This document shows positions 12,521 to 55,695 of a stretch of DNA of 58,377 nt, piece by piece (the first letter of the stretch is position 1; the number at the start of each line of letters is the position of its first letter). The position numbers and the translations under genes were made by a program. The notes beneath the pieces were generated by a model, which had not been told where the DNA came from, did no database searches, and saw only the letters and a list, made by a program, of their open reading frames with translations. The DNA comes from an uncultured Rickettsiales bacterium (GTDB lineage Bacteria > Pseudomonadota > Alphaproteobacteria > Rickettsiales > SXRF01), in contig CAZAQK010000001.1 of the NCBI GenBank assembly GCA_964487265.1, positions 1 through 58,377 of the forward strand, given 5' to 3'.

Positions 12521-12606
12521 GAACGATGAGCGATGAGAAGATGAGCGATAATAGGAATGCTTAATTACTCTTTTTCGTTTCATCTTTCATCGTATTATCG
12601 TTCATC
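12521..12606. repeat. long imperfect hairpin with heptamer-periodic arms (GAGCGAT-like units / TCATCGT-like units)
   Basis: Paired segments 12521-12529/12595-12603, 12531-12538/12585-12592, 12540-12545/12579-12584 and 12546-12551/12572-12577. It fills the whole spacer between convergent genes. Confidence 0.75.
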
Positions 12607-12609
12607 CAC

Positions 12610-13461
12610 CTAAAACAACACCCACATCGTAGTTAGCAGCCATAGCGCAAGATTCGCCAGCTGTAATTTGTCGCGCACTATGACGCTTTCCGGCTCGCCG
12701 CCCTGCCCGTATACATGGATGGATTGCAGGTAACGGAATAATCCAAACGCCACAAACCCCACTGTATAAACCAGCTCCACTCGCCCTAACTGTGCAGAAA
12801 GCTCTGCCGCGTAAATTGCATAGGTCATGAGGGCAGCGCAGCCGGAAATCGTCACCAGCCTATCAAGCAGATCGCGGCTGTAATGCTTGAGGTTCGCTTT
12901 GCTCTCCGCATAGCCAGCTATACCCATTTCGTGGTAACGCTTGCCGAAACCGAGAAACAGCGCGAGGGTGAAGGTGGCAAGCACGATCCACGGCGAGATC
13001 ATCACCTGCAGCGCATAGGCACCCATCAGCACACGCAGCACATAGCAGAATGCCACAAAGAAAATATCCATGATGGCAAAACGCTTGAGCACGCAGGTAT
13101 AAAGACCATTCGATATAACATATAATCCTGCAATCACCGCACATTGCGCTGGCAAGAAAGACGCCAATATAACAACAAATATCGCTGCAACCGCAGCCAG
13201 TATAGATGCCGTCCCCATGCTGAGTTCGCCTGCCGCAAGCGGCCGCGCTTTTTTAACCGGATGCAGGCGGTCTTCCCCGACATCCCGCATATCATTGACG
13301 ATATAAACTAAGCTCGCCATCGCACAGAAACACAGTGCAGCCAGCAGTGTAAGCTGCCACGCGGCAGCATCGGCAAACTGCCCAGAGAAAAAGAGCGGAG
13401 CAAATACAAAGCCGTTTTTAATCCATTGTTTTGGCCTTAGCAGCCTAATGGTCGCGTTCAT
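12610..13461 (-). CDS. UbiA-family prenyltransferase, decaprenyl-phosphate phosphoribosyltransferase (DPPR synthase)-like
   Basis: The N-terminus from the ATG at 13461 (MNATIRLLRPKQWIKNGFVFAPLFFSG) and the NDMRDVGEDRLHPVKKARPLAAG motif are typical of the Rv3806c/NoeC-type branch. It has about 8 TM helices. The longer ORF-track N-terminus overlaps the upstream gene and is unlikely. Confidence 0.8.
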   Translation of the reverse strand: MNATIRLLRPKQWIKNGFVFAPLFFSGQFADAAAWQLTLLAALCFCAMASLVYIVNDMRDVGEDRLHPVKKARPLAAGELSMGTASILAAVAAIFVVILASFLPAQCAVIAGLYVISNGLYTCVLKRFAIMDIFFVAFCYVLRVLMGAYALQVMISPWIVLATFTLALFLGFGKRYHEMGIAGYAESKANLKHYSRDLLDRLVTISGCAALMTYAIYAAELSAQLGRVELVYTVGFVAFGLFRYLQSIHVYGQGGEPESVIVRDKLQLANLALWLLTTMWVLF

Positions 13462-14602
13462 GCGGTGCCCTTGGGTTGTTGGGTTGAAAGAAGGATGATT
13501 GCGAAAATCCTGCCGCCTGCGTGAGCGTGTGCGTGGCAAGCAGCACGAGAAGCGGCAGCACATCGAAAAACACACGGTATTCGCCGGGATTGCCATGCAG
13601 CACGTAGCCCATATAAACAAACGGCAACAGCCACAGCACGTTTTTCAGGAACGCTGGTTTTTGCGTCCAGCGGTAGGTGACCAGGAAGAACAGGATCGCC
13701 ATGTTGATCATCTTGTGGAAGTTGGCCTTACCCAGAATATCCCTGTTGAGGACAAAGAACAGGTTTTCTTCCAGGAACCAGCCGGGGTTTTTGAAATAGG
13801 CCATCGCGAGGATAGCTTTTACCGCAATAAATATCAGGCACTGTATGACCCAGAGCGAGACAAAAACCGGCGTGGTGTAACGCTTATACGCCCAGATGGT
13901 GAAAAAGATAAAAATGAAAATCGACGTCTCGCGGTTCAGGCAGGCCAGTGTAAACAGTAATACATAGGCCTTGTATTGCTGCCTGAGCATAGCGAAATAG
14001 CAGGCTGCTGAAAGGAACAGCACGGGGATGTCATATATATACTGCCACGGCCTGCTGAATGCCGAGATGGCAAGCAGGCCGAATATCGGTGCAAACCATC
14101 GCATCGCCTCGTCGTCCGGCATGAGTGCTGCCGCCAGCCTGTGCAGCATGACGATGTATCCCCAAAGCATCGCATATATGATCAATGTTGATACAATGCG
14201 CGGATAGATGTTTTTTTTATGAAACGTTGGGCCAAGCCATGGCAAAAGCCTTCTGGTTTCCATGGATTCGGGATGGCGCATCCACTCCCTGACGGACCGG
14301 TTGATACCCTGCTGCCATGAATCGGGCGAAACATCCACTACAATAGATGTGAGTTTGGGAATAAGCACACGGTAGACGAAGGGCTTCCACGCCGTGCCCT
14401 CATACATCGCATCATAGGCCGTGCGGTGATAGACATCTCCCAGATGCGAGTTGCTCAGAAAATGCGCCATCACATAGACGGACAGCACGGCATATACAGG
14501 CCCGAATAGTAAAAGCTTATGCCAGCGTATCGCGAAATGCCGGATGCTATCCTGCCACTTCAACATCAATGCTTTTATATCTGTCGTGTCCATATCCTGC
14601 AT
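13445..14602 (-). CDS. polytopic membrane protein, paralogue A (possible GT-C-like glycosyltransferase)
   Basis: 385 aa with about 10 hydrophobic segments. It shares PFVYRVLIP, YDIP, LACLNRETSIFI and PGEYRVFFDVLPLLVLLATHTL with the neighbouring gene. 17-nt overlap with the DPPRS gene. Confidence 0.7.
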   Translation of the reverse strand: MQDMDTTDIKALMLKWQDSIRHFAIRWHKLLLFGPVYAVLSVYVMAHFLSNSHLGDVYHRTAYDAMYEGTAWKPFVYRVLIPKLTSIVVDVSPDSWQQGINRSVREWMRHPESMETRRLLPWLGPTFHKKNIYPRIVSTLIIYAMLWGYIVMLHRLAAALMPDDEAMRWFAPIFGLLAISAFSRPWQYIYDIPVLFLSAACYFAMLRQQYKAYVLLFTLACLNRETSIFIFIFFTIWAYKRYTTPVFVSLWVIQCLIFIAVKAILAMAYFKNPGWFLEENLFFVLNRDILGKANFHKMINMAILFFLVTYRWTQKPAFLKNVLWLLPFVYMGYVLHGNPGEYRVFFDVLPLLVLLATHTLTQAAGFSQSSFFQPNNPRAPHERDH

Positions 14603-14605
14603 GGT

Positions 14606-15703
14606 TTACCGCTGTGCTACAGGTGCAGGATTGAACATGCCGTGGCGCGCAAGGCCAGTGCATTCCACCAGCGTATGGGTGGCAAGCACGGCAAGCAGTG
14701 GCCAGATATCAAGGAATACCCGGTATTCATCCGGCCGGCCGAACAGGAAATAGGCTGCGTACATCAGCACCAGCAATGCCATGCCCATGCGTGCAAATGG
14801 CGGCTTTTGCTGCCAGTTGAATGTGAGCAAAAATACAATAAAGAAAATGGCAGCGAGTGTTTTATAGCCATACCCATCCAGCCACATGGAGGTCTGCTGC
14901 GCCACGTAGGATGTGTTCAGGAATATGCCGGGATTCTCCATGAACTGGAGATATATCACACCCCGCAGCAAAGCAAAAACGGCAAACTGCAAGCCAAGCA
15001 GCATGATGTATGACCGCCTGTCCATCCGCTGATAATAGAAAAGCGCGAAAAACAGGCTGATGAACATCGCGGTTTCTTTATTGATGCAGGCCAGCACAAA
15101 CCAAAGCCAAAACCACTGCCACCGCTTTACTGCCATGGTGTAATAGGCGGCGGCGGCAAGCCCCATGGCCGGCAGATCATACATGAATGCGGTGGGCACA
15201 AGAAGCACCGGCACGACAAGCAGACCAATCACCGGTGTGCACAAAGCCATAGCAGGATTATTTGGAAACAGCACTGCCGACAGGCGGTATAATGCCACGA
15301 TGAACATCCACAAAAAACCATACGCCAAAGCTGCGGCAATAGTGCGTGTAAAGAATGCGCCTGTATCCTCAAGGGCTGTCCTGAACATGCGTTTTTGCGT
15401 GGCAAACGCCTGCGCAACCGGCAATCCTTGTGCAAACCCTGCCGCCTCGGCACCTATGGATTCCTGCAGTGAAGCTGGCATCAACGATTGGACAGCAACG
15501 GTCATGGCAGGTATCAGCCGTCGGTATACGTATGGCCGTTCCGCAGTGCCATCCACCATCGATGAAACGGTGGCTCCGCGCCAGGTATCGCCAAGGTTGG
15601 AGGCGATCAGGTAACGCCCCATGACAAACAGGGAAAGCACCGCATATGCAGCAGCAAACACACACCAGACAACGGGTTTGACAGAAACACCTGATTCGGA
15701 CAC
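14606..15703 (-). CDS. polytopic membrane protein, paralogue B (possible GT-C-like glycosyltransferase)
   Basis: 365 aa with PYVYRRLIP, YDLP, LACINKETAMFI and PDEYRVFLDIWPLLAVLATHTL. It sits 3 nt upstream of paralogue A. Confidence 0.7.
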   Translation of the reverse strand: MSESGVSVKPVVWCVFAAAYAVLSLFVMGRYLIASNLGDTWRGATVSSMVDGTAERPYVYRRLIPAMTVAVQSLMPASLQESIGAEAAGFAQGLPVAQAFATQKRMFRTALEDTGAFFTRTIAAALAYGFLWMFIVALYRLSAVLFPNNPAMALCTPVIGLLVVPVLLVPTAFMYDLPAMGLAAAAYYTMAVKRWQWFWLWFVLACINKETAMFISLFFALFYYQRMDRRSYIMLLGLQFAVFALLRGVIYLQFMENPGIFLNTSYVAQQTSMWLDGYGYKTLAAIFFIVFLLTFNWQQKPPFARMGMALLVLMYAAYFLFGRPDEYRVFLDIWPLLAVLATHTLVECTGLARHGMFNPAPVAQR

Positions 15704-15791
15704 GGCTTAAGCCCTGATTGTTGGTTTTTTGTTTAAGTTACTGTTCTTTTTTGCTATTGAATCTCCTTATAAACAAGCAAAAAGGTGCGTC

Positions 15792-16268: not shown

Positions 16269-16273
16269 ATTCT

Positions 16274-17845: not shown

Positions 17846-17854
17846 GCTGGCAGA

Positions 17855-18187: not shown

Positions 18188-18315
18188 GGTTCTTATAATG
18201 CAAATACCGTGCCGACACCTCATATGAATTAAAATGTCACACTGATGCATGAATCACACAAACTTATAACATCTAGTTGTGCTAACCGATGGTTTTATAC
18301 TATATATAGTTAGTG

Positions 18316-21438: not shown

Positions 21439-21440
21439 TT

Positions 21441-31664: not shown

Positions 31665-34600
31665 TCAGGCCGCACTTGCGCGCAGTTGCAGCTTTTTGAG
31701 GCAGAAATCCACCCACTGTGCCGTGAGTTTTTCCTGCACGGAGTTCTGCCTGAGGCGGTCACTCAGGTGTGGGAAATCCACATGGTCCAGAGGCTGATCC
31801 TGATTGAAGCAGGAATAGACATAATACTCCCTGCCGGTTGCTGGATCGATATGTTTCTGCAGGCACTGCGCGCATATCTCTTTCATCATGCACTGCATCG
31901 GCGAGTTGATACTGCCAATAGCCACATGGTCTGACTTCAAATAAGGCTTAAGTACACTGTGACGAGCGGCACCCACTGCCGCCATCATGCGGTCAGAGCC
32001 GATGGCGATGATGTGGTTGATAGTGTCCAGCGGCCAGTGGCCAGTGACCAGTTTTCCACTCGCATAGGCAACCATCGCCTCGACAATATTACCCTTATAA
32101 CTCATATCCTGCGGGCGGTTTTTGGAAAGTTCGGCCTCATCGCAGCACCAGACAATAACATCCGCTGCCTGCTCGATTTCCTCGATCTTGTAGCGGTCGA
32201 TGGCCTTTTTATATCCGGCGAAATAGAGCACCTTCGAGCCTTTTGCCCTCAGTGCCTTGCCGATGGAAAAGAGCACGGCATTACCCAGCCCGCCGCCAAC
32301 CAGCATGACATGTTCATTGGCAGGAATTTCTGTGGGTGTACCCGTCGGGCCCATGAGAATGACTGGTTCTCCATTCTTCAAATGCGCGCACAGATCAGAT
32401 GAACCGCCCATTTCCAGCGCGATAACAGAAATAAGCCCTTTGTCCTTATCCACCCATGCACCCGTCATGGCCAGGCCTTCCATGGCAAGTGTAGTGGCTG
32501 ATATTTTCAGTGCATGTGCCTCAAAATTCTGCAGGCGATAGAACTGCCCGGGCTGGAATTGCTGCGCTGCAAGCGGTGCATGCATCACCACCTCGATAAT
32601 GTTCGGTGTCAGGCGATTCACCGCATGTACGGTAGCGCGTAACTGCTGATTTATTTTTGTTATAAATTCTGAACTCTGCACTCTGAACTCTGCACTCTTC
32701 CTTCTTGCAAGCGCAGCTGTCACCACCGGATAGCCCTGCTTCGCACTGCCCATGGCCTTCACCACATTACCGGCAAATGACGGATGCAGGTCACCAAAGA
32801 AGCTCACACTCCTGCCTTCTTCATCAATCGACATCAGCACATGCACGTCTTTTGGTTTCGATACGCGCTCAGGTTTTACATGGTTTCCGCTGGCATCCAC
32901 TGCCTTGAAATATTTGCCATCGAGCGCGAAGTGCTCGGGATCTTCACGTTGCAGCACTGTGTTAGGGTTCGTACCCGCTGCAATCAAAATGGTGCGGGCG
33001 GGAATGGTGATGGTATCATTCTCCGTACCCGCTTTCTTCAGTGTAATGCTGCTGGCATAGCCAGATTTATCACATCCGATCGCCTGCGGCTCGAAAAGCT
33101 CCGAGAAAAAGATCCCCTCTTCAAATGCTTTCTCTACTTCTTCATGATTCAGGCGGTAACTCGGCGCATCGATCAGCCGTTTGCGGTAAATGAGTTTTAC
33201 CCCACCCCATGCATCAAGCAAACTCCAGACATCCGGTTTTTCTTTTTTCTTTTCTTCACGAATAGCACGGCCATGCGCCAAAAATTCCTCGGCAATCAGT
33301 GTATCTTCCTCACTCCAGCTTTTACGCACCGCTGCTTCGCCGCGCTCTGCAACTAACGCTTCATAACGCGCAAGGAATTTTTCCACCTGCACAGGATAAT
33401 AGGCAAGTGATTCGGTTGCCGTATCAATGGCAGTCAAACCCCCGCCGATCACCACTACCGGCAGGCGCACCTGCAAATTGGCGATGGAATCCTTTTTCGC
33501 GGCACCGGTAAGCTGCAATGCCATCAGGAAATCTGAAGCCGTGCGCACGCCGCGAGAAAGGCCGCCGGGCATATCGATCAGTGTTGGTTTGCCTGCTCCC
33601 ATGCAGAGCGCAATGTGGTCAAAGCCCAGTGCAAAAGCATTCTCATACGTAAGCGATGAACCAAAACGCACCCCGCCGATCATCGCAAATTGCTCGCGCC
33701 GCTCAAGCAGCAGGCGGATGATCTTCAGGTAATTCTTATCCCAGCGCACCGTGATGCCATATTCGGCAACGCCACCAAAGCCCGCCAGCGTGCGCTCATC
33801 GAGTGATTCATAAATGGTGTTGATGTCTTTAATGGGTTCAAACGGCACACGCGTACCAAGTGCTGTTACGCCGGAAATATTTTCTGCCACCGGCTCGATT
33901 TTAAGCCCATCGATGCCAACCACCGTATGCCCATCATTTATCAGGTGATGTGCCAGCGTATAACCCGCAGGGCCAAGGCCTGCCACCAGCACGTTGCGGC
34001 CAGTATCTGCCTTGGGCAGCGGCCGTTCCAGATTCAGCGGATTCCAGCGTGTGAGCAGTGAATAGATTTCGAACCCATATGGCAATTTTAACACATCCTT
34101 CAACACATGCGTTTCCACCAGCGGGATATTCACCGGCTCCTGCTTCTGGTAAATGCAGGATTTCATGCAATCATTACAGATGCGATGCCCCGTGCCGGCA
34201 CACATGGGGTTATCCACCGTCACCATCGCCAGTGCACCAAGCGGCACACCTTCCGATTTCAGCATGTTCATTTCAGATATTTTTTCTTCGAGCGGGCAAC
34301 CGGCAAGCGTAATGTTGAGCGCATTTTTCTTATAAGCAGTGGCTGGAGTTTGGAGTTTAGAGTTTGGCAAAGACATCTCTTCACCAGACTCTAAACTCAA
34401 ACCACCAACCACTTTCTCCTTCATGCCTTTTGAGCAGGAATCTTTGCCCTGATTGTGGCAGAAGATGCAGTAATTCGCATGGTCGAGTGCTTGCTGTAAT
34501 GTACCAGCATCATCAGTAAGCTTAAAGCCATCGCGTGCGCGCAGATGGTGTTTGTGGGAGCGCATCACCGTCACGCCATCACGCAGTTCCGTTTCTACTG

Positions 34601-35195
34601 CTACTAAATTCTCTGCATCTAATTTACGCGGAGATTTAAATAAAATCCCGCCTGCATGCCGCGCCCGCCCTGTTTCCGTAAGCAATGCCCACGCGGCATA
34701 ACGCGCCGCCATCTCGAGCAATGATTTATGCTGCGCCTCATTTTCCAGCCAACCCATCACCGTCTTAGCGAATGCCAGTTCAAAGAATTCATCCTGCACC
34801 GGCACAAGTGGAAGCATCTGCAAGATCGCATCGGCATTTAAGCGTTCTGCTTCCTCCTGCTTCAGTGCTTTCGCAGCACGCCGCTGCACAAATAAACGCT
34901 TGCAGGCATAGAGCGGTGCCAGCGTATGATGCCACTCGGCAAGTTTCTGCACTTCTGTTTCAATACCAAACAGTTTGGCAATAAAATCTTCCGCATACGG
35001 CGCAATATCAATAAGTAATTGCGAATACGCCTTGTCATCCAGCGAGGCTCTCTCCGCGCGTGCTGCCACAAAACGATTGAAGAGCTCAATATCAGCTGCC
35101 TTCAGTTCATCACAAAAAATACCGTCGAGCTTCACCAACCCATCGCGATGATAGAATTCATCAAATCGTATTTCAAAGCCGAACTGTTTATTCAT
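31665..35195 (-). CDS. large fused flavo-iron-sulfur oxidoreductase (unknown N-domain + GltD/SudA-like + PyrK/SudB-like)
   Basis: 1176 aa. Cys clusters CIFCHNQGKDSC and CAGTGHRICNDCMKSC. Two Rossmann motifs, VLVAGLGPAGYTLA and VVVIGGGLTAIDTA. An FNR-like module follows (RLTPNIIEV ... VMLVGGGLGNAV) with a C-terminal 2Fe-2S-type Cys motif CMMKEICAQC...SC. It starts 6 nt after the cysNC stop. Confidence 0.75.
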   Translation of the reverse strand: MNKQFGFEIRFDEFYHRDGLVKLDGIFCDELKAADIELFNRFVAARAERASLDDKAYSQLLIDIAPYAEDFIAKLFGIETEVQKLAEWHHTLAPLYACKRLFVQRRAAKALKQEEAERLNADAILQMLPLVPVQDEFFELAFAKTVMGWLENEAQHKSLLEMAARYAAWALLTETGRARHAGGILFKSPRKLDAENLVAVETELRDGVTVMRSHKHHLRARDGFKLTDDAGTLQQALDHANYCIFCHNQGKDSCSKGMKEKVVGGLSLESGEEMSLPNSKLQTPATAYKKNALNITLAGCPLEEKISEMNMLKSEGVPLGALAMVTVDNPMCAGTGHRICNDCMKSCIYQKQEPVNIPLVETHVLKDVLKLPYGFEIYSLLTRWNPLNLERPLPKADTGRNVLVAGLGPAGYTLAHHLINDGHTVVGIDGLKIEPVAENISGVTALGTRVPFEPIKDINTIYESLDERTLAGFGGVAEYGITVRWDKNYLKIIRLLLERREQFAMIGGVRFGSSLTYENAFALGFDHIALCMGAGKPTLIDMPGGLSRGVRTASDFLMALQLTGAAKKDSIANLQVRLPVVVIGGGLTAIDTATESLAYYPVQVEKFLARYEALVAERGEAAVRKSWSEEDTLIAEEFLAHGRAIREEKKKEKPDVWSLLDAWGGVKLIYRKRLIDAPSYRLNHEEVEKAFEEGIFFSELFEPQAIGCDKSGYASSITLKKAGTENDTITIPARTILIAAGTNPNTVLQREDPEHFALDGKYFKAVDASGNHVKPERVSKPKDVHVLMSIDEEGRSVSFFGDLHPSFAGNVVKAMGSAKQGYPVVTAALARRKSAEFRVQSSEFITKINQQLRATVHAVNRLTPNIIEVVMHAPLAAQQFQPGQFYRLQNFEAHALKISATTLAMEGLAMTGAWVDKDKGLISVIALEMGGSSDLCAHLKNGEPVILMGPTGTPTEIPANEHVMLVGGGLGNAVLFSIGKALRAKGSKVLYFAGYKKAIDRYKIEEIEQAADVIVWCCDEAELSKNRPQDMSYKGNIVEAMVAYASGKLVTGHWPLDTINHIIAIGSDRMMAAVGAARHSVLKPYLKSDHVAIGSINSPMQCMMKEICAQCLQKHIDPATGREYYVYSCFNQDQPLDHVDFPHLSDRLRQNSVQEKLTAQWVDFCLKKLQLRASAA
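32671..32698. repeat. four tandem heptamers (GAACTCT GCACTCT GAACTCT GCACTCT) inside the oxidoreductase CDS
   Basis: Read directly from the sequence. It is translated (minus strand) within the segment RRKSAEFRVQSSEFITK, at the junction of the GltD-like and PyrK-like modules. Confidence 0.85.
34341..34410. repeat. hairpin with heptamer-periodic arms (GGAGTTT units) inside the oxidoreductase CDS
   Basis: Arms 34341-34367 / 34384-34410 give 22 Watson-Crick pairs + 1 G-T of 27, with a 16-nt loop. It is in frame and translated within the segment GGLSLESGEEMSLPNSKLQTP. Confidence 0.85.
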
Positions 35196-37169: not shown

Positions 37170-37995
37170 CGGCTCTTAGTCGCTCAAAGCTCGATTCATC
37201 CTCATCCGCACCCATCGGGCGGCCTGAACGTTCGGACACTTTGGTAGTTTTTAGTTCTTCGATGATTGCATCGATCGTTGCAGCACCGCTTGCAATCGGC
37301 CAGGTGATACCTCTCTCACCAAGTGAACGAAAACGCATCATCTGCCCATTGAAACTCCGACCTTCAAATTCATGATAAACCCGCGCGAAATATAGCGGCA
37401 CAATGGGGATATTTTCACGTTTGATATATTGCCAGATATCCAGCTCCGTCCAGTGCAGGAGCGGATGGATACGAAGCGACGTGCCGGGTGCAAAATCCGT
37501 TTTATACTGATCCCAGAATTCCGGTGGTTGCTCTTTCACATCCCATCCACCTTCCACGCCACGTGGCGAGAACACGCGTTCTTTCGCGCGCGTTGCTTCT
37601 TCATCACGGCGAATGCCTGCTATCACACCAGTGAACCCATGACGTTCCAATACCTGCTTCAAACCCAGCGTTTTACGGGATGCCACGCGGGCAGCATGTG
37701 GCAATGAATTATCGGTTTCTTCCAGCGGTGGGCATACGGGAGCTATTAAATTGATGTTCCACTCTTTCACATATTTATCACGGAAAGCATAGACCTCTTC
37801 CATTTCCAGTTCGGTATCGCAGTGAATAAGTGGAAACGGTACCTGCCCGAAAAATGCTTTGCGTGCTAAGTGGATCATCACGTTGGAATCTTTGCCGAAA
37901 GACCACAACATGGCGAGCTTGTCGATGGCGTTGAAAGCCTCGCGGAAGATGTAGATGGATTGTGCTTCTAATTGGTCAAGATGGTTGTGGGTCAT
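37156..37995 (-). CDS. cysD: sulfate adenylyltransferase subunit 2
   Basis: 279 aa with [21 protein letters not shown] and the PP-loop family pattern. Its ATG forms an ATGA overlap with the stop of the preceding four-helix-bundle ORF. Confidence 0.94.
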
Positions 37996-38007
37996 TGGTC
38001 ATTAGTC
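37991..38007. repeat. left arm of inverted repeat bracketing the four-helix-bundle ORF (GGTCATT heptamer units)
   Basis: GTCATTGGTCATTAGTC is complementary at 15/17 positions to 38351-38367. It contains the cysD start codon and the stop of the four-helix-bundle ORF. Confidence 0.8.
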
Positions 38008-38363
38008 TTTTGGGATTGTATAAGTTTTCCAAGCATTCTGTTGATACTTTCAATTATACTTGAAAGTTCTATATAATTATCCGTTGAAAGATATTTTCTG
38101 GATTGCGCGATAATCAGCTGCGTTTCCAATTCAGCGATTGAACCGCGTGCAATATATAAGAACTGTACAAATTCTTTTTTACTGTTTCGTGCACTGCCTT
38201 CTGCAATATTCGACGGTATAGATACCGCGCAACGCTGTATCTGCTGCGTCAGGCCGTATCGCTGATCGGCAGGAAATTTTTCAGTAGCAGTGTAAACTTT
38301 ATCCACCAGCGTCATAGACAAATTCCACACTTCCAAGTTCTTAAACCCATGACTCATGACCAT
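37992..38363 (-). CDS. four-helix-bundle protein (23S rRNA intervening-sequence protein / Avd family)
   Basis: 123 aa with family hallmarks FKNLEVWN, FPADQRYGLTQQIQRCAVSIPSNIAEGSAR and FLYIARGSIAELETQL. The real start may be Met3 at 38357. Confidence 0.85.
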   Translation of the reverse strand: MVMSHGFKNLEVWNLSMTLVDKVYTATEKFPADQRYGLTQQIQRCAVSIPSNIAEGSARNSKKEFVQFLYIARGSIAELETQLIIAQSRKYLSTDNYIELSSIIESINRMLGKLIQSQKTNDQ

Positions 38364-38367
38364 TGAC
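38351..38367. repeat. right arm of inverted repeat bracketing the four-helix-bundle ORF (CATGACN heptamer units)
   Basis: GACTCATGACCATTGAC pairs with 37991-38007. Weaker complementarity continues outward to about 37982/38376. It contains the start codons of the four-helix-bundle ORF. Confidence 0.8.
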
Positions 38368-38378
38368 GCATGACTAAA

Positions 38379-39116
38379 TTAAACGCTCCAATCCGATACC
38401 TGGTCGGACGACAGATGTATGCCACATTCAGTTTTCTTTTCATCTTCAATCCCGATCGTATGCGCCCAGCGGCCAGCACGCTCATCCTGCCCCGCCTGCA
38501 CTTTAGCCGTGCATGGCGCACAGCCGATGGAAAGATAACCTTCCTTGACCAGCGGATGTTCCGGCAGCTTGCGCTCTTTTGTTTCTTTTTTCTGGCGTTC
38601 CTTATCCCAGAAGGCAAGCGGGTTGATGCGGAAAATGCCTTTATCATCCAACTCTATCGTTTGCATTTCAGCGCGCTCAAGCGTCTGGTAACGCTTGCGG
38701 CCTGTGATGAGTGCAGTAAGTTTTAATTGCTCCACGGCACGGTTCAGAGGTTCTACCTTGCGCAACCAGCAACAGCGGTTGGGTTGAGTGCTCCAGAGTT
38801 TGCCATCCGGATCGATACGTTTTTCCATCTCTGCATCTGGTGTAAGCCAATGCACATTGGTAAGGCCAAGTTGCTTGGAAAGCGTACGCGCATACTCCAG
38901 CGTTTCGGGGAAATGCTTGTGCGTTTCAAGAAATAAAATTGGTGTTGATTTATCGACTTCGGCAACCAGCGCAAGCAGCAATGCAGCATCCGCCCCGAAG
39001 GAAGAAATAAGGCCGATCTTTCCTTTAAATTCTTCACGTATCATCACGCGCAGGAGTGCCGTGGCATCCAGCGAGCCATAGAACATCTGCAGGCGCGAAA
39101 GGGAGACATCACTCAT
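38379..39116 (-). CDS. cysH: phosphoadenosine/adenosine phosphosulfate reductase, Fe-S (APS-reductase) type
   Basis: 245 aa with the Cys pairs NRCCWLRKVEPL and SIGCAPCT plus the C-terminal KTECGIHL. Confidence 0.9.
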   Translation of the reverse strand: MSDVSLSRLQMFYGSLDATALLRVMIREEFKGKIGLISSFGADAALLLALVAEVDKSTPILFLETHKHFPETLEYARTLSKQLGLTNVHWLTPDAEMEKRIDPDGKLWSTQPNRCCWLRKVEPLNRAVEQLKLTALITGRKRYQTLERAEMQTIELDDKGIFRINPLAFWDKERQKKETKERKLPEHPLVKEGYLSIGCAPCTAKVQAGQDERAGRWAHTIGIEDEKKTECGIHLSSDQVSDWSV

Positions 39117-45852: not shown

Positions 45853-45921
45853 TGGTTGCTTGTTACTAGTTGTTGGTTGTTAGAAGCAATACACTAGCAA
45901 CTAACAACCAGCAACTAACAA
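45853..45921. repeat. hairpin with heptamer-periodic arms (TAGTTGT/TGGTTGT units)
   Basis: Core stem 45867-45883 / 45901-45917 gives 16 Watson-Crick pairs + 1 G-T of 17, with a 17-nt loop. It fills the fadB-like/DUF475 spacer. Confidence 0.85.
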
Positions 45922-48279
45922 CTAATTCCTCAGGGGCTTGCCCGTATCCAATATATGTTCAATACGCGCCAGTGAATCCTTGTGCTTCACCAGCTCCATG
46001 AAGGATTCGAACTCCAGGTCGAGCAACTGCTGTTCAGTCATTGCTTCCGACATATCGGTATCACCGCCGGAAAGCACTGTTGCCAAGTGCCGGCAAACCA
46101 CCACATCATGCGGTGTTGCCTTGCCTGCTGCCTTGAACCCATCCACCGCCATATTCATCGCAACTTTTGCTGATTTGCCCGGCAGGTGCAACGTGGCTTG
46201 TTCTGGCGTGACATAATCCTTCGCCATTTCCATGCAGCGCGCTTTTGCATCCGCCAGCACACGCACGCGGTTCATGGTGATACCATCGCTCTCACGGAGT
46301 ATTTTCATATCGCGCGCTTCTTCGGCAGAGAGGCCAACCTTCGCGGTCGCGATCGCTTCGAACACTTTGGTGATGGCAGGCATCGCACCACCCGTTGCCA
46401 TCAGGTTCCCGATCATGCCACCGGATGAGCCTTTCTTCTCGCCTAAATGCCGGATCAGCATTTCCTTACAGCCGCCCCACGCCGGGATCAGGCCCACGCC
46501 CACTTCCACAAGGCCGGGATAGGATTCGATATGCGCCTGCACTGCATTGGAGTGCAGCACAATTTCACACCCGCCCCCAAGCGCACGGCCAGTAAGCGAT
46601 GCCACCACCGGGAACGGTGCATATTTAAGCGCCATCACGGCGCGCTGACCGGCACGTATCACTTCGCCGATCTGCCCCCATGCCGCAATATTTGCTGCCA
46701 TCAATACGAAGCCAAGGTTTGCGCCTACGGAGAAATTATCCGCATCATTACCAACCACTAACCCTTTGAAATCCTGCTTCACAATGCCAATTGACTGCTC
46801 GATCATCGAAAGGATATCCGGATCAACTGAATTCATTTTTGAGGTGAGCTCCAGGCAGGCAATGCCATCTCCTAAATCCCAAAGCGATGCCGATGGATTT
46901 TTTGCAATCGGTTTGGCAGTAAGTTTGATATCAGACACCATAAGCGAACCATCCGGCGGGATGATCGCTTCATACTGCCCGCCAATGGTGAAGGCCTGAC
47001 GTTTGCCAGCTTCCGCACCATACAGTTTTTTGCCGCGCGCTTTTTCAATGATCGCTGGAACCGTTTTGCCATCGGCTTTCAGCTGGTCAGCAAACCAGTC
47101 TGCGCCCATGCGGTCGATCATCTCGAACGGGCCGTATTTCCAGTTATAGCCCATCTTCATCGCGCCATCGATATCGGCGATATGGTCAGAAATTTCTGGC
47201 ACCAGCGATGCTGCATAATGCAGCGTGCCAAGCAACACGCTTCTCGCATATTGCCCACCAATATCCTTGTGCGACATGAGTGGTGCCATGCCACCTTTTG
47301 CTGCTTCAATGCTCGCGAGCTCAACTTTTTTCGGCTGGGTGTAATACTCACCCGTTTGCAAATTGATGACTTCTTTTATTTTTTTGTCATCCACCTTGTT
47401 CACACGGTAAAAACCACCTTTGCCTTTGCGGCCGGTGTAGCCATCCGCGATCATTTTGGTGACCAGTGCTGGCTCCTGATACGCGGTGTTGAACGCATCT
47501 CTCGCCGGAAGCGTTGCTTTCATCTCACGCGCAATCAGCGGCATGAGGTCGATACCGATGAGGTCGAATAACCCGAACACACCGGTCTTTGGAATGCCAA
47601 CAGGCTTACCCATCACCGCATCTGCTTGCTCGACAGTGATGCCAAGGCGAATCGCTTCGGTTAAACCCAGCATCAGCCAGTACACGCCAATGCGATTGGC
47701 GATAAAGCCCGGCGTATCCTTGCAATGCACCACACCTTTGCCCAGATGCACATCGGCAAAATTGCAGATAGCATCAAATGCCGGCTTCTCGCACGCACCC
47801 TGCACCACTTCCAGCAGGCGCATATAGCGCGGCGGGTTGAAGAAATGGGTGATCATGAAATGCTTCTTGAAACCGTCAGAGAAGCCTTTGGTCAGCTCAT
47901 GCAGCGGAATGGTGGAAGTGTTGGAGGAAACCACCGCGTCAGCTTTGCGCACCGACTCGATCTTTTTATACACATCATGCTTCACTTCGAGTTTCTCGAG
48001 CACCACTTCGATGATCCAGTCGCAATCGGCAAGGAGCTTCAGGTCATCTTCCAGATTGCCGCAGGTGATGAGTTTGGCGCGGTCTTTATGGACAAACCCG
48101 GCAGGATTAGCTTTTAACTGTTTTTCTACAGCGGATTCAGTGAGTTGGTTGCGATTCGTGGCACCTTTTGGCACAATATCCAATAAAACCACTTTGGTGC
48201 CGGAATTGGCGATCTGGGCGGCAATCCCGCTACCCATGACACCCGAACCCAAAACCCCAACTTTTTTGATATTTGCCAT
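45922..48279 (-). CDS. 3-hydroxyacyl-CoA dehydrogenase / enoyl-CoA hydratase family protein (FadN-type domain order)
   Basis: 785 aa with the N-terminal NAD site VGVLGSGVMGSGIA, 3HCDH domains, and a crotonase-like C-terminal part. Confidence 0.9.
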   Translation of the reverse strand: MANIKKVGVLGSGVMGSGIAAQIANSGTKVVLLDIVPKGATNRNQLTESAVEKQLKANPAGFVHKDRAKLITCGNLEDDLKLLADCDWIIEVVLEKLEVKHDVYKKIESVRKADAVVSSNTSTIPLHELTKGFSDGFKKHFMITHFFNPPRYMRLLEVVQGACEKPAFDAICNFADVHLGKGVVHCKDTPGFIANRIGVYWLMLGLTEAIRLGITVEQADAVMGKPVGIPKTGVFGLFDLIGIDLMPLIAREMKATLPARDAFNTAYQEPALVTKMIADGYTGRKGKGGFYRVNKVDDKKIKEVINLQTGEYYTQPKKVELASIEAAKGGMAPLMSHKDIGGQYARSVLLGTLHYAASLVPEISDHIADIDGAMKMGYNWKYGPFEMIDRMGADWFADQLKADGKTVPAIIEKARGKKLYGAEAGKRQAFTIGGQYEAIIPPDGSLMVSDIKLTAKPIAKNPSASLWDLGDGIACLELTSKMNSVDPDILSMIEQSIGIVKQDFKGLVVGNDADNFSVGANLGFVLMAANIAAWGQIGEVIRAGQRAVMALKYAPFPVVASLTGRALGGGCEIVLHSNAVQAHIESYPGLVEVGVGLIPAWGGCKEMLIRHLGEKKGSSGGMIGNLMATGGAMPAITKVFEAIATAKVGLSAEEARDMKILRESDGITMNRVRVLADAKARCMEMAKDYVTPEQATLHLPGKSAKVAMNMAVDGFKAAGKATPHDVVVCRHLATVLSGGDTDMSEAMTEQQLLDLEFESFMELVKHKDSLARIEHILDTGKPLRN

Positions 48280-50442: not shown

Positions 50443-50511
50443 AGTAATTCCTTTCTGAAGCGATTATTTTGCCAAAAAACCCTTACTTTTTCGTTAGTTT
50501 TTAGGTAATAA

Positions 50512-50593
50512 GGTCGTCATTGCGAGCGAAGCGAAGCAATCCAGCTTAATCTGGATCGCCACGTCGGCCTTCAGCCTCCTCGCGATGACGAGG
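50512..50593. repeat. MITE-like palindromic element (GTCATTGCGAGCGAAGCGAAGCAATCCAG type)
   Basis: Terminal inverted repeats CGTCATTGCGAG / CTCGCGATGACG match at 11/12. There is an inner palindrome ATCCAG-cttaat-CTGGAT. It ends 4 nt before the ATG of the next gene. Confidence 0.75.
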
Positions 50594-50597
50594 AAAC

Positions 50598-51605: not shown

Positions 51606-52459
51606 GCGCGAAAGTGATTGATGGCAAAGCATTCGCTGCAAATCTTCGCACTGACATTGCAAAGCGAGTTGCAAAACTCAAAGCCGAAAAAGGCATCACA
51701 CCCGGCCTTGCCGTAGTACTGGTGGGCAGTGATCCCGCCAGTGAAGTGTACGTAAAAAGCAAAGGTAAACAGACGCTGGAAGCTGGCATGAATTCCTATG
51801 AATTAAAACTGCCGGACACCACAACGCAGGCGCAACTCCTTGAAAAAGTGCATGAACTCAATAATAATCCACAGGTGCATGGCATATTGGTGCAGCTGCC
51901 TTTGCCCAAGCATATTAATGAAGATGCCATCATCAATGCCATCTCGCCGGATAAGGATGTGGATGGATTCCATGTGATAAATGCTGGCCGCCTTGCCACT
52001 GGCCAACAGGCATTTGTACCGTGCACCCCGCTTGGCTGTTTAATGCTGCTGAAAGATACGGTTGGAAATCTCGCGGGTAAACACGCAGTCGTCATTGGCC
52101 GCTCCAACATTGTGGGTAAACCTATGGCTGCTTTATTGCTGAAAGAAAGCTGCACGGTAACTATTGCCCATTCTAAAACGGCAAATCTGCCGGATGTAGT
52201 GAAACTTGCTGATATCGTGGTCGCCGCCGTTGGCCGCCCTGAGATGGTCAAAGGTGAATGGCTAAAGCACGGAGCCGTGGTCATCGATGTGGGGATAAAT
52301 CGGCTAAGCCTGCCAGATGGAAAGACAAAACTGGTGGGCGATGTCGATTATGAATCCTGCATTAGCGTGGCATCCGCCATCACACCAGTGCCCGGAGGCG
52401 TCGGCCCGATGACCATCGCCTGCCTGCTGGAAAATACGCTAAGAGCAGCAAATAGGTAG
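51602..52459 (+). CDS. folD: bifunctional methylenetetrahydrofolate dehydrogenase/cyclohydrolase
   Basis: 285 aa with [25 protein letters not shown] and PGGVGPMT. Confidence 0.95.
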
Positions 52460-52553
52460 AAATATCAGTTAATTACCATATTTCATCATAACGTAATATT
52501 TCTATAATCAGTGTATGTTATGCTGATTCGGATATTTAATTCATGAGGATACT

Positions 52554-52931
52554 ATGAAAAAAACACGTGTAGTAGATAAACTCCCAGAATCAGTTAATGC
52601 CGTTATCCGCGATTTTAATGATAAGGTACGTGCATTGGATGAAGCCAATGGCGCAGAAACACCAACGACAATCGACTGGACAGACCTGGCCCGCGCTGCA
52701 ACCACTTATGCAAAAAGCGAAACGGCTGGTGCTCATGTAAGCCCTACTGCATTGCTGCAGGAAATGATGGCAGCTAAGCGTGCAATTCGCGAAGATCCGG
52801 CTAAGCCTGACTATATCACAGAAGGATTTCTGGATGATTTTGCTGCAGCTGTTGTTGATGCCGCACAAAGCAAAACAGCAGGAATTAATGCAAAGAAAGC
52901 CAGCGGCAACAGCGAAATGGTAAAGGGATAA
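52554..52931 (+). CDS. hypothetical protein (125 aa)
   Basis: ORF preceded by GAGGA in an AT-rich spacer. No recognisable motif. Confidence 0.45.
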   Translation: MKKTRVVDKLPESVNAVIRDFNDKVRALDEANGAETPTTIDWTDLARAATTYAKSETAGAHVSPTALLQEMMAAKRAIREDPAKPDYITEGFLDDFAAAVVDAAQSKTAGINAKKASGNSEMVKG

Positions 52932-52952
52932 AACTCAAAACTACTGAGTTTT
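52930..52952. terminator. hairpin AAAACTCA-aaactac-TGAGTTTT between convergent genes
   Basis: 8-bp stem at 52930-52937 / 52945-52952. The T-run is part of the stem. The 3' arm overlaps the last codons of mltG. Confidence 0.4.
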
Positions 52953-53930
52953 CTTCTGCCCGCTTAACACTTTCCGGTACTCACGCACAAACGCATTATG
53001 CTGGTTAAGCGTTTCCGAGAAGTTATGGCCACCGGTACCGGTTGCGACAAAATATAACTCCTTGGTTTCTGGCGGGTTCAGCACGGCCTCAATAGATGCA
53101 CGGCCGGGATTGGCGATCGGTGCCGGCGGCAGACCTTCATACATATAGGTGTTGTAACGCGAATCATATTTAAGGTCTGCGCTTGTAAGCGCACCTTTGA
53201 GTGGACCTTTATCTTTTTCCACGCCATATGCCACCGTCGGGTCAGATTGCAGTTTCATACCGCGATTCAAACGGTTGATGAACACCGCCGCCACACGCGG
53301 ACGTTCGGATTTCACGCCGGTTTCTTTTTCCACGATGGAAGCCAACACAATTGCCTCTTCTACCGTGCGTATGGGAAGGTTGGTTTTGCGCTTGGGCCAC
53401 AGTTCCGCAAGCAATGCCTGCATGGAAGCCTGCATGCGCTCCACGATCAACTGGCGGGAATCGCCATACGTATAATGATAGGTTTCTGGCAGCAGGAAGC
53501 CTTCCCTAAGTCCTTCCGGCACGCCACCTTCCAGCACAGGTTCTTCGGCAAGCAGCTCTTTGATTTCTGCAACAGTAAGACCTTCCGGAATGGTGATCTT
53601 GTGCACCACTACCTGGCCTTCAGCGATCATATCCATCACCAGTCGTGGGCTGATGCCTGCTGAAAATGCATATTCACCAGCTTTGAATTTACGGCCATCA
53701 CCAGTTGCAGCAGCAATTGCTTTAAACAAGATGGGTTGGGTTATCACACCCTTTTCCGCCATATGGTCAACGATGGCCTGGAAGCCCATGCCTTTGCGGA
53801 AAATGATGTTCGTGGGTTCAGGCAATGGCCCTGCTGAATCATAGTAATATTTGGTGTAGATGCCGGTTGCAGCACCGAGAATCGCAAGAAAAATGAGTAG
53901 GCTGGAAAATTTCTTCACAGCCCTTGGCAT
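52941..53930 (-). CDS. mltG: endolytic murein transglycosylase MltG (YceG family)
   Basis: ATG at 53930 overlaps the fabF stop by 1 nt (TGATG). It has an N-terminal TM helix, and the EASIVEKETG and GLPPAPIANPG motifs. Confidence 0.9.
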   Translation of the reverse strand: MPRAVKKFSSLLIFLAILGAATGIYTKYYYDSAGPLPEPTNIIFRKGMGFQAIVDHMAEKGVITQPILFKAIAAATGDGRKFKAGEYAFSAGISPRLVMDMIAEGQVVVHKITIPEGLTVAEIKELLAEEPVLEGGVPEGLREGFLLPETYHYTYGDSRQLIVERMQASMQALLAELWPKRKTNLPIRTVEEAIVLASIVEKETGVKSERPRVAAVFINRLNRGMKLQSDPTVAYGVEKDKGPLKGALTSADLKYDSRYNTYMYEGLPPAPIANPGRASIEAVLNPPETKELYFVATGTGGHNFSETLNQHNAFVREYRKVLSGQKKTQ

Positions 53931-55186
53931 CAGACGCGCTTGAACACTACTGATGCGTTGGTGCCACCGAATCCGAACGAGTTGGAAAGCGCAGCATCCA
54001 CTTTGCGTTGTTTTGCGGTGTGCGGCACGAGGTCGATGTCGCACCCTTCGGATGGGTCATCGAGGTTGAGTGTAGGTGGCACTGTATTATGCACTATGGA
54101 AAGCACTGCAAACGCCGCTTCCACAGCACCTGCTGCCCCAAGCAAATGGCCGATGGCCGACTTGGTGGAAGACATGGAAATTGTATTCGCCGCATCACCG
54201 AACAGGCGTTTTACTGCACCAAGTTCTATCTCATCACCCAGTGGCGTAGATGTGCCGTGCGCATTCACATAATCAACATCAGATGGGTTGAGGTTTGCGC
54301 GTTTGAGTGCTGCCTGCATAGCGCGGAACCCGCCATCGCCGCCCGGAGCCGGAGCAGTGATGTGATACGCATCACCCGATAAACCATAACCCACGATCTC
54401 AGCATAAATCTTTGCACCGCGTTTTTTCGCATGCTCATATTCTTCCAGCACCAGAATACCAGCGCCCTCACCCATCACGAAACCATCGCGGCCTTTATCC
54501 CATGGGCGGGAGGCTTTTTCCGGCGTGTCATTGTAGGATGTGGAAAGTGCGCGCGCCGCAGCAAACCCTGCAAGGCCGATGCGGCAGATGGTTGCTTCGG
54601 CACCGCCTGCAACCATAATATCGGCATCGCCAAATTGAATAAGGCGTGAAGCATCACCAATGGCGTGCGCGCCGGTGGAGCATGCCGTCACCACCGAATG
54701 GTTGGGGCCTTTGAAGCCGTATTTAATCGAAACCTGTCCGGAGGCTAAGTTGATAAGGCAGGCCGGAATGAAGAACGGGCTCACGCGGCGCGGGCCTTTT
54801 TCCTTCATCATCAGCACGGTTTCTTCGATCGCGTTCAGGCCACCGATACCAGAGCCGATCATCACGCCCGTGCGGAGTTTTTCCTCATCGCTTAAATTAG
54901 TGATGCCTGCATCTTCTACCGCTTCCGTTGCCGCACCAAAAGCAAAATGGATAAAATCATCCATCTTCTTCTGCTCTTTCACCTCAATGTAATTATCGGC
55001 ATTGAACTGGCCTGCTTCCAACCCACGCGGCACCTGCCCCGCGATACGCGCAGGAATATCAGACACATCAATACGGGTGATGGTGGATATGCCGGACTTT
55101 GAGGCGGTCAAATTATCCCACGTGGTTTTAACACCGCAACCCAGCGGTGTAACCAACCCCATACCTGTGATAACGACACGTCTCAT
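53930..55186 (-). CDS. fabF: beta-ketoacyl-ACP synthase II
   Basis: Start MRRVVITGMGLVTPLG at 55186, with active-site TACSTGAHAIG, HGTSTPLGD and SFGFGGTNA. The ORF-track start at 55249 runs into the hairpin repeat. Confidence 0.95.
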   Translation of the reverse strand: MRRVVITGMGLVTPLGCGVKTTWDNLTASKSGISTITRIDVSDIPARIAGQVPRGLEAGQFNADNYIEVKEQKKMDDFIHFAFGAATEAVEDAGITNLSDEEKLRTGVMIGSGIGGLNAIEETVLMMKEKGPRRVSPFFIPACLINLASGQVSIKYGFKGPNHSVVTACSTGAHAIGDASRLIQFGDADIMVAGGAEATICRIGLAGFAAARALSTSYNDTPEKASRPWDKGRDGFVMGEGAGILVLEEYEHAKKRGAKIYAEIVGYGLSGDAYHITAPAPGGDGGFRAMQAALKRANLNPSDVDYVNAHGTSTPLGDEIELGAVKRLFGDAANTISMSSTKSAIGHLLGAAGAVEAAFAVLSIVHNTVPPTLNLDDPSEGCDIDLVPHTAKQRKVDAALSNSFGFGGTNASVVFKRV

Positions 55187-55197
55187 AAGTGTGGCTC

Positions 55198-55266
55198 GGT
55201 GGCTTGGTGGCTCGGTGACTTGGTGGTTCTTACTGAGCCACCTGGTCACTCAGTCACCTAGTCACT
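55198..55266. repeat. hairpin with octamer-periodic arms (GGTGGCTY / AGTCACCT units)
   Basis: Arms 55198-55226 / 55238-55266 give 21 Watson-Crick pairs + 5 G-T of 29, with an 11-nt loop. It fills the acpP-fabF spacer. Confidence 0.85.
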
Positions 55267-55267
55267 A

Positions 55268-55510
55268 TTAAGCTGCTTTAGCGTGGCTTTGGATGTAGTT
55301 CACTGCATCCTGAAGGGTCAGGATCTTTTCAGCAGCATCATCAGGGATTTCGATGTTAAATTCTTCTTCAAACGCCATAACCAGCTCTACGGTGTCGAGA
55401 CTGTCTGCGCCCAGGTCATCGATAAAGCTTGCTTCTAAAACCGCTTTGGCTTCATCAACGCCGAGATGTTCAACAACAATCTTCTTCACGCGTTCTGCAA
55501 TATCACTCAT
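55268..55510 (-). CDS. acpP: acyl carrier protein
   Basis: [12 protein letters not shown]... with the [15 protein letters not shown] phosphopantetheine site. AAGGA lies 7 nt upstream of the ATG at 55510. Confidence 0.95.
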
Positions 55511-55627
55511 GGTGTTCATCCTTGATAGTTAATAATCTCAACGAGCGGCAGACAATAACCAACCTGCCTGAAACGTCAAGTGATTGATTGGGGTTAGCAT
55601 AAGCGTTTGTGTTTGTGAAGGAAAATA

Positions 55628-55695
55628 GTGTGCGTGTGGGTGTGAGTGCGGGTGATTTATACTTTCTTCACCCACACCCGCACCAGCACTGCCAC
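55628..55695. repeat. hairpin with ~8-nt periodic GT-rich / CA-rich arms
   Basis: Arms 55628-55655 / 55668-55695 give 20 Watson-Crick pairs + 2 G-T of 28, with a 12-nt loop. It lies in the fabG-acpP spacer. Confidence 0.8.

Follow-up and report, generated by a model that had tools for sequence, protein, structure and literature searches.

Hairpins of short tandem units in an uncultured Rickettsiales bacterium and their possible kinship with S23p-like genes

What are the hairpins that stand between, and in places inside, the housekeeping genes of an uncultured Rickettsiales bacterium, if each is built from short tandem units and the unit differs at every locus? The question is raised by a stretch of 58,377 bp (~51% G+C; contig CAZAQK010000001.1 of assembly GCA_964487265.1), which we call the window. 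One of its loci holds, between two arrays of 7-nt units, an open reading frame (ORF) for a four-helix-bundle (4HB) protein of the S23p type, the type encoded in intervening sequences (IVSs) of 23S rRNA genes. We found that this setting is typical of the gene family: 4HB genes generally lie between inverted heptamer arrays. We incline, with some reserve, to the view that the loci of the window are one kind of hairpin-forming insertion element, the same kind as the 23S IVS, and that most of them are copies devoid of the ORF.

Periodic hairpins and four-helix-bundle genes

Repeats were searched with Tandem Repeats Finder (TRF) and with a detector of our own, which seeks a tandem tract plus a gapped reverse-complement partner within 120 nt; ungapped inverted-repeat scoring was too strict, missing most loci, and was replaced by this detector. 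RNA folds of both strands were scored against 200 shuffles per locus. Five loci (the four ORF-less hairpins and the in-frame hairpin of Table 1) form long imperfect hairpins on both strands, equalled by 0-1 of 200 shuffles, and all their arms are tandemly periodic according to TRF and the detector. The fold of the hairpin at 34338 reaches -48.9 kcal/mol (z -9.3, - strand) and that at 55191 reaches -48.2 kcal/mol (z -7.1, + strand); z is -5.7 at 12521 (+ strand), -6.6 at 55626 and about -4 at 45853. Four window loci have a tandem tract with its reverse complement within 120 nt, against none in 60 dinucleotide shuffles, and five period-7 tracts were observed where 0.28 are expected. The excess over shuffled sequence that an initial annotation of this DNA had proposed to look for is thus present, here on the scale of the window.

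That annotation had described seven loci with units of 7-8 nt, six of them with an arm facing its imperfect reverse complement, mostly across loops of 11-20 nt. Much of this holds. Three hairpins have a period of 7 and the one at 55191 a period of 8; that at 55628 has 6/12 and not about 8. Five of the six pairs of arms give strong folds, and the sixth, that of the ORF-carrying locus (38351-38370 and 37988-38007), is complementary at 17 of 20 positions, a score equalled in 3 of 200 shuffles and modest when taken alone. Stems measure 17-30 bp, with regular mismatches, and loops 4-33 nt, which replaces the range first given. The array at 32668 has no inverted partner and no significant fold, as had been said. 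The claim that architecture is common to the loci and unit sequence is not was also right, since no unit recurs among the loci of the window.

The ORF-carrying locus (Table 1) lies at the junction of cysH and cysD. Its protein matches NCBIfam NF008911 (1e-40) and TIGR02436 (1e-37), more weakly Avd (8e-10), and the crystallised S23p protein XCC0516 (PDB 2GSC; E 1.4e-24). The 5' arm follows the cysH stop codon (38379-38381) directly and includes the start codon of the 4HB ORF, while the 3' arm carries its stop codon and a new start for cysD, whose N-terminus reads MTHN... instead of MD.... In the two closest relatives, which we label L001 and L003 (labels L001-L182 denote comparison loci from relatives, metagenomes and finished plasmids, which are samples and not a census), the 4HB ORF is missing from this junction and cysH and cysD overlap (GTGTGATGG), so that the window has ~395 nt inserted. 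The more distant L087 has a 4HB ORF of 49% identity at the same junction with other arms (GTGTTCY ... GAACACR).

The initial annotation had asked whether further 4HB ORFs lie within such stems, and most of those examined do. Using an alignment of the 4HB proteins of the window and L087, we gathered 80 metagenomic loci, none of them in an rRNA context, of which 73 ORFs were evaluable. Inverted arms around the start and stop codons (score of at least 17) were found at 55 of the 73, against 1.2% of 1186 control ORFs. The arm period among these 55 is 7 in 47, 8 in seven and 9 in one, the median arm length is 32 nt (4.6 units), and the polarity given by GC skew is consistent in 50. A tandem array lies within 120 nt of at least one ORF end in 60/73 and of both ends in 40/73; the corresponding figures for controls (n = 1177) are 6.6% and 0%. 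Finished plasmids repeat the picture: the 4HB gene lies between inverted 7-nt arrays in Nostoc, Geminocystis, Anabaena and Riemerella and between 8-nt ones in Picosynechococcus, and short heptamer arrays flank 4HB genes on plasmids of Nostoc, Calothrix and Anabaena.

Arm similarity climbs with the identity of the 4HB proteins, being 0.63 for proteins 70-80% identical and 0.19 below 60%, while the outer flanks are unrelated. Where ORF-less or long-loop hairpins adjoin a 4HB element, they use its unit (L144/L149, L135, L150, L087). These comparisons show that the sequence of the arms goes with the 4HB gene, either carried along or evolving together with it, and is not dictated by the site of insertion.

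A literature search for a general link between S23p/4HB genes and heptamer arrays turned up a single paper, on the IVS of Coxiella burnetii, in which a stem of 28 bp encloses the S23p ORF in its loop; the 5' side of this stem has 2-3 GACAGAT heptamers in tandem, their number varies between strains, and RNase III cleaves at the first repeat (PMC4990558). In a table of the paper on Xanthomonas heptamers, a GGGAATC array overlaps the start codon of XCC0516 (PMC4692102).

Heptamer hairpins also occur among the relatives of the host. In 1.35 Mb of their DNA, an inverted partner accompanies 28 of 57 period-7 tracts, against 7/188 of period 5 and 7/201 of period 6. The 5' arm is the richer in G/T and the 3' arm in A/C in 30 of 31 period-7/8 hairpins, and this polarity is identical on both strands. 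Some unit families recur across genomes and loci (GACAGAT, GGCATTA/GGGATTA, TAGTTAC/TGGTTGC, GAGTGCA): GACAGAT builds hairpins in L005, L011 and L014, and recurrence within a genome was seen in L040, L011 and L087. In the stretches compared, period-7 hairpins are restricted to a clade of metagenome-assembled genomes (MAGs) with 47-57% G+C and were found in none of Azospirillum, Dongia and Reyranella.

Placement and turnover

The window carries genes for NDUFA12, a UbiA-family prenyltransferase, a 1176-aa flavin adenine dinucleotide (FAD) oxidoreductase (PRK06567/RP005 type), cysH-cysD-cysNC, fadB- and fadA-like and TerC-like proteins, and fabD-fabG-acpP-fabF. Its exact and near matches come from freshwater MAGs of uncultured organisms (labelled 'Alphaproteobacteria bacterium' or 'Rickettsiales bacterium'), followed by Dongia, Azospirillum and Reyranella. 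Rfam and tRNA scans of the window gave no rRNA, tRNA or Rfam match, so the loci are without known RNA family and without rRNA context. The elements are placed precisely, either after one stop codon and before the following start or stop codon, or within a gene, where they keep the frame and fall in protein loops that tolerate insertions. The initial annotation had placed them in spacers and inside one coding sequence (CDS), which is correct, with the additions that its loci at 32671 and 34341 share that CDS and that the array at 32022 had been overlooked.

Table 1. Features of the hairpin and array loci, with positions in the window
Feature	Position	Strand	Description
ORF-less periodic hairpin	12521-12606		units GAACGAT/GAGCGAT/GATGAGN; fold z -5.7; TRF period 7/15
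Solo heptamer array	32022-32052	-	AGTGGCC x4.4 on +; oxidoreductase CDS, variable segment of alignment; TRF, detector
Solo tandem array	32668-32698	-	TCTGAAC/TCTGCAC on +, GAGTGCA/GAGTTCA on -; TRF 14-nt unit, 100%
In-frame periodic hairpin	34338-34413	-	FAD oxidoreductase, about aa 261-286 = VVGGLSLESGEEMSLPNSKLQTPATA
3' arm of ORF-carrying element	37987-38007	-	GACTAAT GACCAAT GACCCAC
4HB ORF, 123 aa	37992-38363	-	TIGR02436, PF05635 '23S rRNA IVS protein'/S23p, Avd-like
5' arm of ORF-carrying element	38349-38376	-	TAGTCAT GCGTCAA TGGTCAT GAGTCAT
ORF-less periodic hairpin	45853-45924		TAGTTGT TAGTTGC TGGTTGT TAGTTGC ... complement
ORF-less periodic hairpin, 8-nt units	55191-55266		GGTGGCTY/GGTGACTT; TRF period 8/16
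ORF-less periodic hairpin, 6/12-nt units	55626-55697		GTGTGC GTGTGG GTGTGA GTGCGG

The hairpin at 12521 occupies the entire spacer between the convergent stop codons of the NDUFA12 gene (12518-12520) and the UbiA-family gene (12610-12612). It is missing in L168 (GCA_964535825.1), where the two genes overlap, and in L169, another MAG with a 10-nt spacer, and recurs in the independent assembly L170 with 79 of 89 nt identical, against 55% at third codon positions of the UbiA-family gene. This difference indicates that the 12521 copy is under sequence constraint, and it is the sole direct sign of constraint among the copies.

The hairpin at 45853 fills the spacer between the fadB-like and TerC-like genes: its first unit opens with the fadB stop codon TAG (45922-45924), and 5 nt separate the end of the 3' arm from the TerC ATG. 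The same spacer has other heptamer hairpins in L010, L016 and L017, a non-periodic hairpin in L182 and none in L012, and the genes abut in L181. Likewise, the hairpin at 55191 fills the acpP-fabF spacer, ~5-11 nt ahead of the next ATG; this spacer is 22-36 nt long and free of hairpins in L008, L012, L013, L016 and L017, holds a classic GC stem with a T-run in L181 and other hairpins in L005, L006 and L182. On the + strand the 55191 hairpin, owing to G.U pairs, reaches -48.2 kcal/mol, a much more stable fold than the -30.2 kcal/mol of the transcribed - strand and the reverse of what selection on mRNA structure would lead one to expect. The hairpin at 55626 begins at the fabG stop codon (55695-55697), upstream of a conserved acpP leader and promoter, and at this site L005 and L182 have different heptamer hairpins and L012 a small simple one.

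Presence or absence thus differs among relatives at every orthologous site examined, which is the insertion/deletion polymorphism that the initial annotation had proposed to look for. Turnover is quick: genomes 97-98% identical in FabF differ in what their fab and fad spacers contain, be it a GC stem with a T-run, long hairpins of unrelated sequence or a heptamer hairpin with a different unit, or the genes simply abut. Over the 57.5 kb of GCA_964535825.1 that are syntenic with the window, with this same FabF identity, there is no periodic hairpin at all. No direct target-site duplication appeared when filled and empty sites were compared.

A single CDS, that of the oxidoreductase (31665-35195, - strand), harbours the two solo arrays as well as the 34338 hairpin and stays open throughout. 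At 34338, 78 nt replace 9 (net +69 nt, in frame); the hairpin is lacking in the 87%-identical orthologues of L001 and L003, whose empty site reads AAA ACC GGT GAA TAT. Insertions occur at the equivalent protein site in four other lineages, and in the three with DNA examined (L085, L086, L087) differing heptamer hairpins stand at the same codon boundary. In L087, this hairpin is built from the same unit family as the arms of its 4HB element. In the window and in L087, the apex of the hairpin still has the ancestral GGTGAA. The array at 32668 lies in an inter-domain linker and encodes SAEFRVQSSEF; its unit GAGTGCA also builds a hairpin in L016, and the linker of L003 carries a different heptamer array at the same site (AGTCRCC x4, 12446-12476).

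Several further observations can be added. L003, the closest relative with arrays, has CAGAGTY x4 in the oxidoreductase CDS (10148-10180), forming an N-terminal insert ...NPESRVQSSE..., and the peptide NPESRI/V of several homologues appears to be translated from AATCCAG-type heptamers, judging by back-translation from the peptide only. In L086 (~12490-12610) and L087 (~12240-12360), a G/C-rich palindrome (GGGGGAGGG...CCCTCCCCC, about -79 kcal/mol) lies in frame in the oxidoreductase gene, where its translation reads ...PLPNPPPQGGR...; the clade therefore has a third hairpin family that enters coding sequence. The second family is non-periodic, occurs in the window at 50512-50595 and 56444-56545 (GTCATTGCGAGCGAAGCGAAGCAATCC...CTCGCGATGAC and TGTCATCCTCGGGC...GCCCGAGCATGACA; -40 to -46 kcal/mol), and has a relative (TTGTCATTCCCGCG.AAGCGGGAATCC...) that fills the acpP-fabF spacer of L005 and L006. 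The acpP leader (55511-55625; CTTATGCTAACCCCAATCAATCACTTGACGTTT...GGTTATTGTCTGCCGC...), which includes a promoter-like site at 55579-55552 on the - strand, is near-identical in L005, L006, L012, L181 and L182 despite the differing hairpin upstream.

Extra genes are found at operon junctions of relatives as well: L086 (6561-7064) has an unrelated 167-aa ORF between cysH and cysD, in L181 (8400-9584) fabG and acpP are separated by a FAD-binding gene of 394 aa, and in L001 (9384-10004) a DUF2238 gene stands at the junction of cysNC with the oxidoreductase gene. These junctions look like general hot spots of gene insertion. On finished plasmids, 4HB genes separate cas6 from cas4 (in two genera), cas10 from cmr3 and the ribonucleotide reductase subunit genes from each other; the loci are L175 (Anabaena sp. 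90), L177 (Pseudanabaena), L176 (Picosynechococcus) and L171 (Nostoc edaphicum). Such placement could account for the presence of PF05635 in catalogues of 'cas-associated' genes.

How the hairpins may have arisen

In the reading that we favour, an element would consist of two inverted arrays of ~3-5 tandem units, usually of 7 nt and sometimes of 6, 8 or 9, the 5' array being G-rich (usually G/T-rich) and the 3' array complementary to it, with either a short loop or an S23p/Avd-like 4HB gene between them. Of the window loci, one would then be a copy with the ORF and five would be hairpins without it, while the two solo arrays (32022 and 32668) would be half or degraded copies. The pentameric 4HB protein is a possible trans-acting partner of the arrays, perhaps with one subunit per unit given the median of 4.6, and the ORF-less copies may be its non-autonomous relatives, as the hairpin-forming doublets of repetitive extragenic palindromic sequences (REPINs) are of REP-associated tyrosine transposases (RAYTs). 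Once transcribed, stems of 17-30 bp could form double-stranded RNA cut by RNase III, as in IVSs, leaving the neighbouring cistrons uncoupled or end-protected. The inward G/T-rich arrays would often supply stop codons in three frames and thus translational insulation, whereas copies within a CDS would be read through. We infer that ORF-less copies may depend on the 4HB protein, that this protein may bind the arrays and that RNase III may process the stems in mRNAs, and the way in which copies come to stand at new sites is likewise inferred.

Some of these steps could be confronted with the 53 distinct 4HB elements. At the non-Watson-Crick positions of their arms, G.U pairs (sense strand) number 78 and A.C pairs 86. 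There is no bias of G.U over A.C, so complementarity behaves as a property of the DNA or one symmetric between strands. Read inward, the arms close every frame with a stop codon in 25/53 and 24/53 cases (15% for shuffled arms); read outward, the figures are 7/53 and 4/53. Inward stops are a consequence of arms that are poor in C and have a period not divisible by three; they may confer a benefit, translational insulation, without proving one. A motif common to the units of all loci is weak (4.44 bits vs 3.87 +/- 0.05, roughly G-T-K-W-T-Y-N), and related loci inflate the figure. The idea that arms are as a general rule derived from the target site, by copying of units or as repeated target-site duplications, was rejected, since the units go by 4HB lineage even where the sites are unrelated; there are hints of target-derived arms in the stop codons within first units and in the AGCGTGT of the cysH end, repeated where the L087 arm starts.

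The proposal of the initial annotation that ORF-less loci could be relatives of an IVS-like element draws support from the general association of 4HB genes with heptamers, from the Coxiella stem and from units shared elsewhere. Several points weigh on the other side. The units of the window all differ and none fits the arms of the local 4HB element, so that kinship there is one of architecture only. The clade has few 4HB genes, two in ~1.45 Mb of relatives against ~35 hairpins, and a search for further ones in ~1.4 Mb of the relatives' loci found none; L040 and L011 are rich in hairpins with no 4HB gene in their stretch, and local hairpin density does not visibly track 4HB genes. The parity of G.U and A.C argues against selection for a sense-RNA stem and weakens the step that involves RNase III and RNA function. 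No DNA-moving enzyme is associated with the elements, and no transposase was found in the 20 window ORFs around the loci, the rest of the window not having been scanned. The GGTGAA kept at the apex in the oxidoreductase gene looks like arms growing around a resident sequence, not like a ready-made insertion. Finally, direct and not inverted arrays flank the 4HB gene in Pseudanabaena and Gemmatirosa, so a hairpin is not obligatory around it; the plasmid of Pseudanabaena galeata (L177) has (AAAGCTA)x14 upstream and (AAAGCCA)x10 downstream of the gene, and that of Gemmatirosa (L178) CTCCTGC-type arrays on either side.

The retained apex also speaks for a local origin, in which 7-nt slippage, combined with template switching or fold-back, would build each hairpin in place, the hairpin would be kept because it is locally useful, and 4HB genes would be separate selfish cassettes that preferentially settle or persist there. 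The distinct unit at each window locus agrees with this, as do the upstream stop codons inside the first unit (45922-45924, L005, L010, L016), the repeated AGCGTGT in L087 and the array copy numbers that differ between Coxiella strains; for the excess of heptamer simple sequence repeats (SSRs) in bacteria, slippage has already been proposed (PMC4692102). We nevertheless consider this origin, the main rival, rather unlikely. Arm units follow the 4HB lineage across unrelated sites and unit families recur in different genomes and loci, which contradicts the purely local slippage or fold-back that the initial annotation had offered as one possibility. Slippage does not predict the strict polarity with the G-rich arm 5', and a burst of spread fits better with the relative that is 97-98% identical in FabF and lacks such hairpins over 57.5 kb.

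The hairpins could instead be lineage-specific terminators, attenuators or stabilisers of mRNA 3' ends, with neither mobility nor a link to 4HB genes. Like intrinsic terminators, they are stem-loops after a stop codon: the intergenic copies all begin 0-3 nt from the upstream one. Some stem-loop seems wanted in the acpP-fabF spacer, where a close relative has its GC stem and T-run, and one copy is conserved beyond the neutral level. The G+C stem with a T/U tract that defines intrinsic terminators was, however, not found at these loci. The initial annotation had already noted that several loci lack T-runs; in fact every window hairpin lacks the T-tail and none scored as terminator-like in a scan that did detect a canonical bidirectional terminator at 11572-11602 in the same window. 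Window hairpins also lie within operons, between co-directional genes and a few nucleotides before the next ATG (45853, 55191), and one is in frame inside a CDS. Added to the lack of G.U excess in the 4HB set and to the fact that most relatives do with spacers of 0-40 nt, this makes a purely regulatory role quite improbable. Chance similarity or mis-assembly, to which the tandem repeats and palindromes of a MAG contig are prone, can be set aside almost entirely, given that none of 60 shuffles had partnered tracts, that the 12521 hairpin reappears in an independent assembly, that the architecture is found in dozens of other independent assemblies and in finished plasmids, and that the in-CDS copy keeps the frame.

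Known systems and meaning

The closest likeness is to the 23S IVSs of Leptospira, Coxiella burnetii, Brucella and Haemophilus, which share with the ORF-carrying locus a PF05635 ORF in the loop of an inverted-repeat stem. In the window, a PF05635/TIGR02436 ORF is found at 37992-38363 alone, the other loci being ORF-less, and its arms pair as terminal inverted repeats should. The Coxiella unit GACAGAT is that of hairpins in the relatives L005, L011 and L014. IVSs are inserted in rRNA (helix 25 or 45), in contrast to these elements, which sit in operons, convergent spacers and coding sequences; and RNase III excision has been shown by experiment only for rRNA IVSs (PMC4990558).

The arrays also resemble heptamer SSRs, among them the short tandemly repeated repetitive (STRR) sequences of cyanobacteria, in having 7-nt tandem units (except at 55191, with 8, and 55628, with 6/12), few copies per array (mostly 2-6 in SSRs) and intergenic positions close to start and stop codons. 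Those repeats show one or a few units per genome, with no protein link proposed, whereas here each locus in the 58 kb has its own unit, copies occur in frame in a CDS and the host is alphaproteobacterial. The connection to cyanobacterial STRRs that the initial annotation drew comes down to resemblance. CCCCAGT, TTGGTCA and CAACAGT are reportedly the canonical STRR units, and only the arms of the 4HB element resemble one of them, their GGTCATT being a rotation of the second. Heptamer SSRs are over-represented in bacteria, and Xanthomonas genomes have 70-75 GGGAATC arrays each, as convergent inverted pairs (PMC4692102); TAACTGA repeats are found in Beggiatoaceae, Cyanobacteria and Bacteroidetes (PMC4679880).

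The window loci share with the REPIN/RAYT system dispersed hairpin repeats and a gene that itself lies between inverted copies of the repeat. REP sequences and REPINs are scattered intergenic hairpins or inverted doublets, with the RAYT gene flanked by inverted copies. There, the gene encodes a Y1 (IS200/IS605-like) transposase and the repeat is a fixed palindrome of 20-40 nt; here, the flanked gene encodes a helical bundle of ~120 aa and the arms are tandem arrays with units that are not conserved between window copies. Rickettsia palindromic elements, also alphaproteobacterial, reportedly lie in frame in protein genes and are translated, and the in-frame palindromic insertion of +69 nt at 34338-34413 is of this sort. 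Compared by description, those elements have a conserved 100-150-bp consensus without 7-nt periodicity, whereas the heptamers here are locus-specific. Miniature inverted-repeat transposable elements have conserved terminal inverted repeats and target-site duplications; here no duplication was found and the arms differ between copies.

A wider view, which we hold only tentatively and think doubtful as it stands, is that S23p/Avd-like 4HB proteins and heptamer arrays (STRRs, GGGAATC, TAACTGA-type repeats, IVS stems and the hairpins of the window) form one system, unconnected until now, in which the pentamer would recognise its cognate array at about one unit per subunit and drive or protect the spread of cassettes flanked by the array and of array hairpins that lack the ORF. 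Such a system would have spread into gene boundaries, operons (cysH/cysD, cas6/cas4, cas10/cmr3, ribonucleotide reductase subunits), rRNA genes and coding sequences. The constant polarity, in which the G-rich strand points inward (5' to 3') from either side, could be the footprint of its mechanism, for example templated addition of repeats to the two 3' ends of a break.

The findings show that an essential-looking enzyme can tolerate such elements in frame and that their turnover is rapid, since genomes 97-98% identical in FabF already differ in them. When MAGs are annotated, the elements produce spurious peptides, fuse or lengthen ORFs and displace start codons. To our knowledge, the excess of heptamer repeats (with STRRs known since 1990), the origin of the 23S IVS and the function of S23p outside diversity-generating retroelements have gone without explanation for decades; the kinship suggested here would bring the three into one testable picture.

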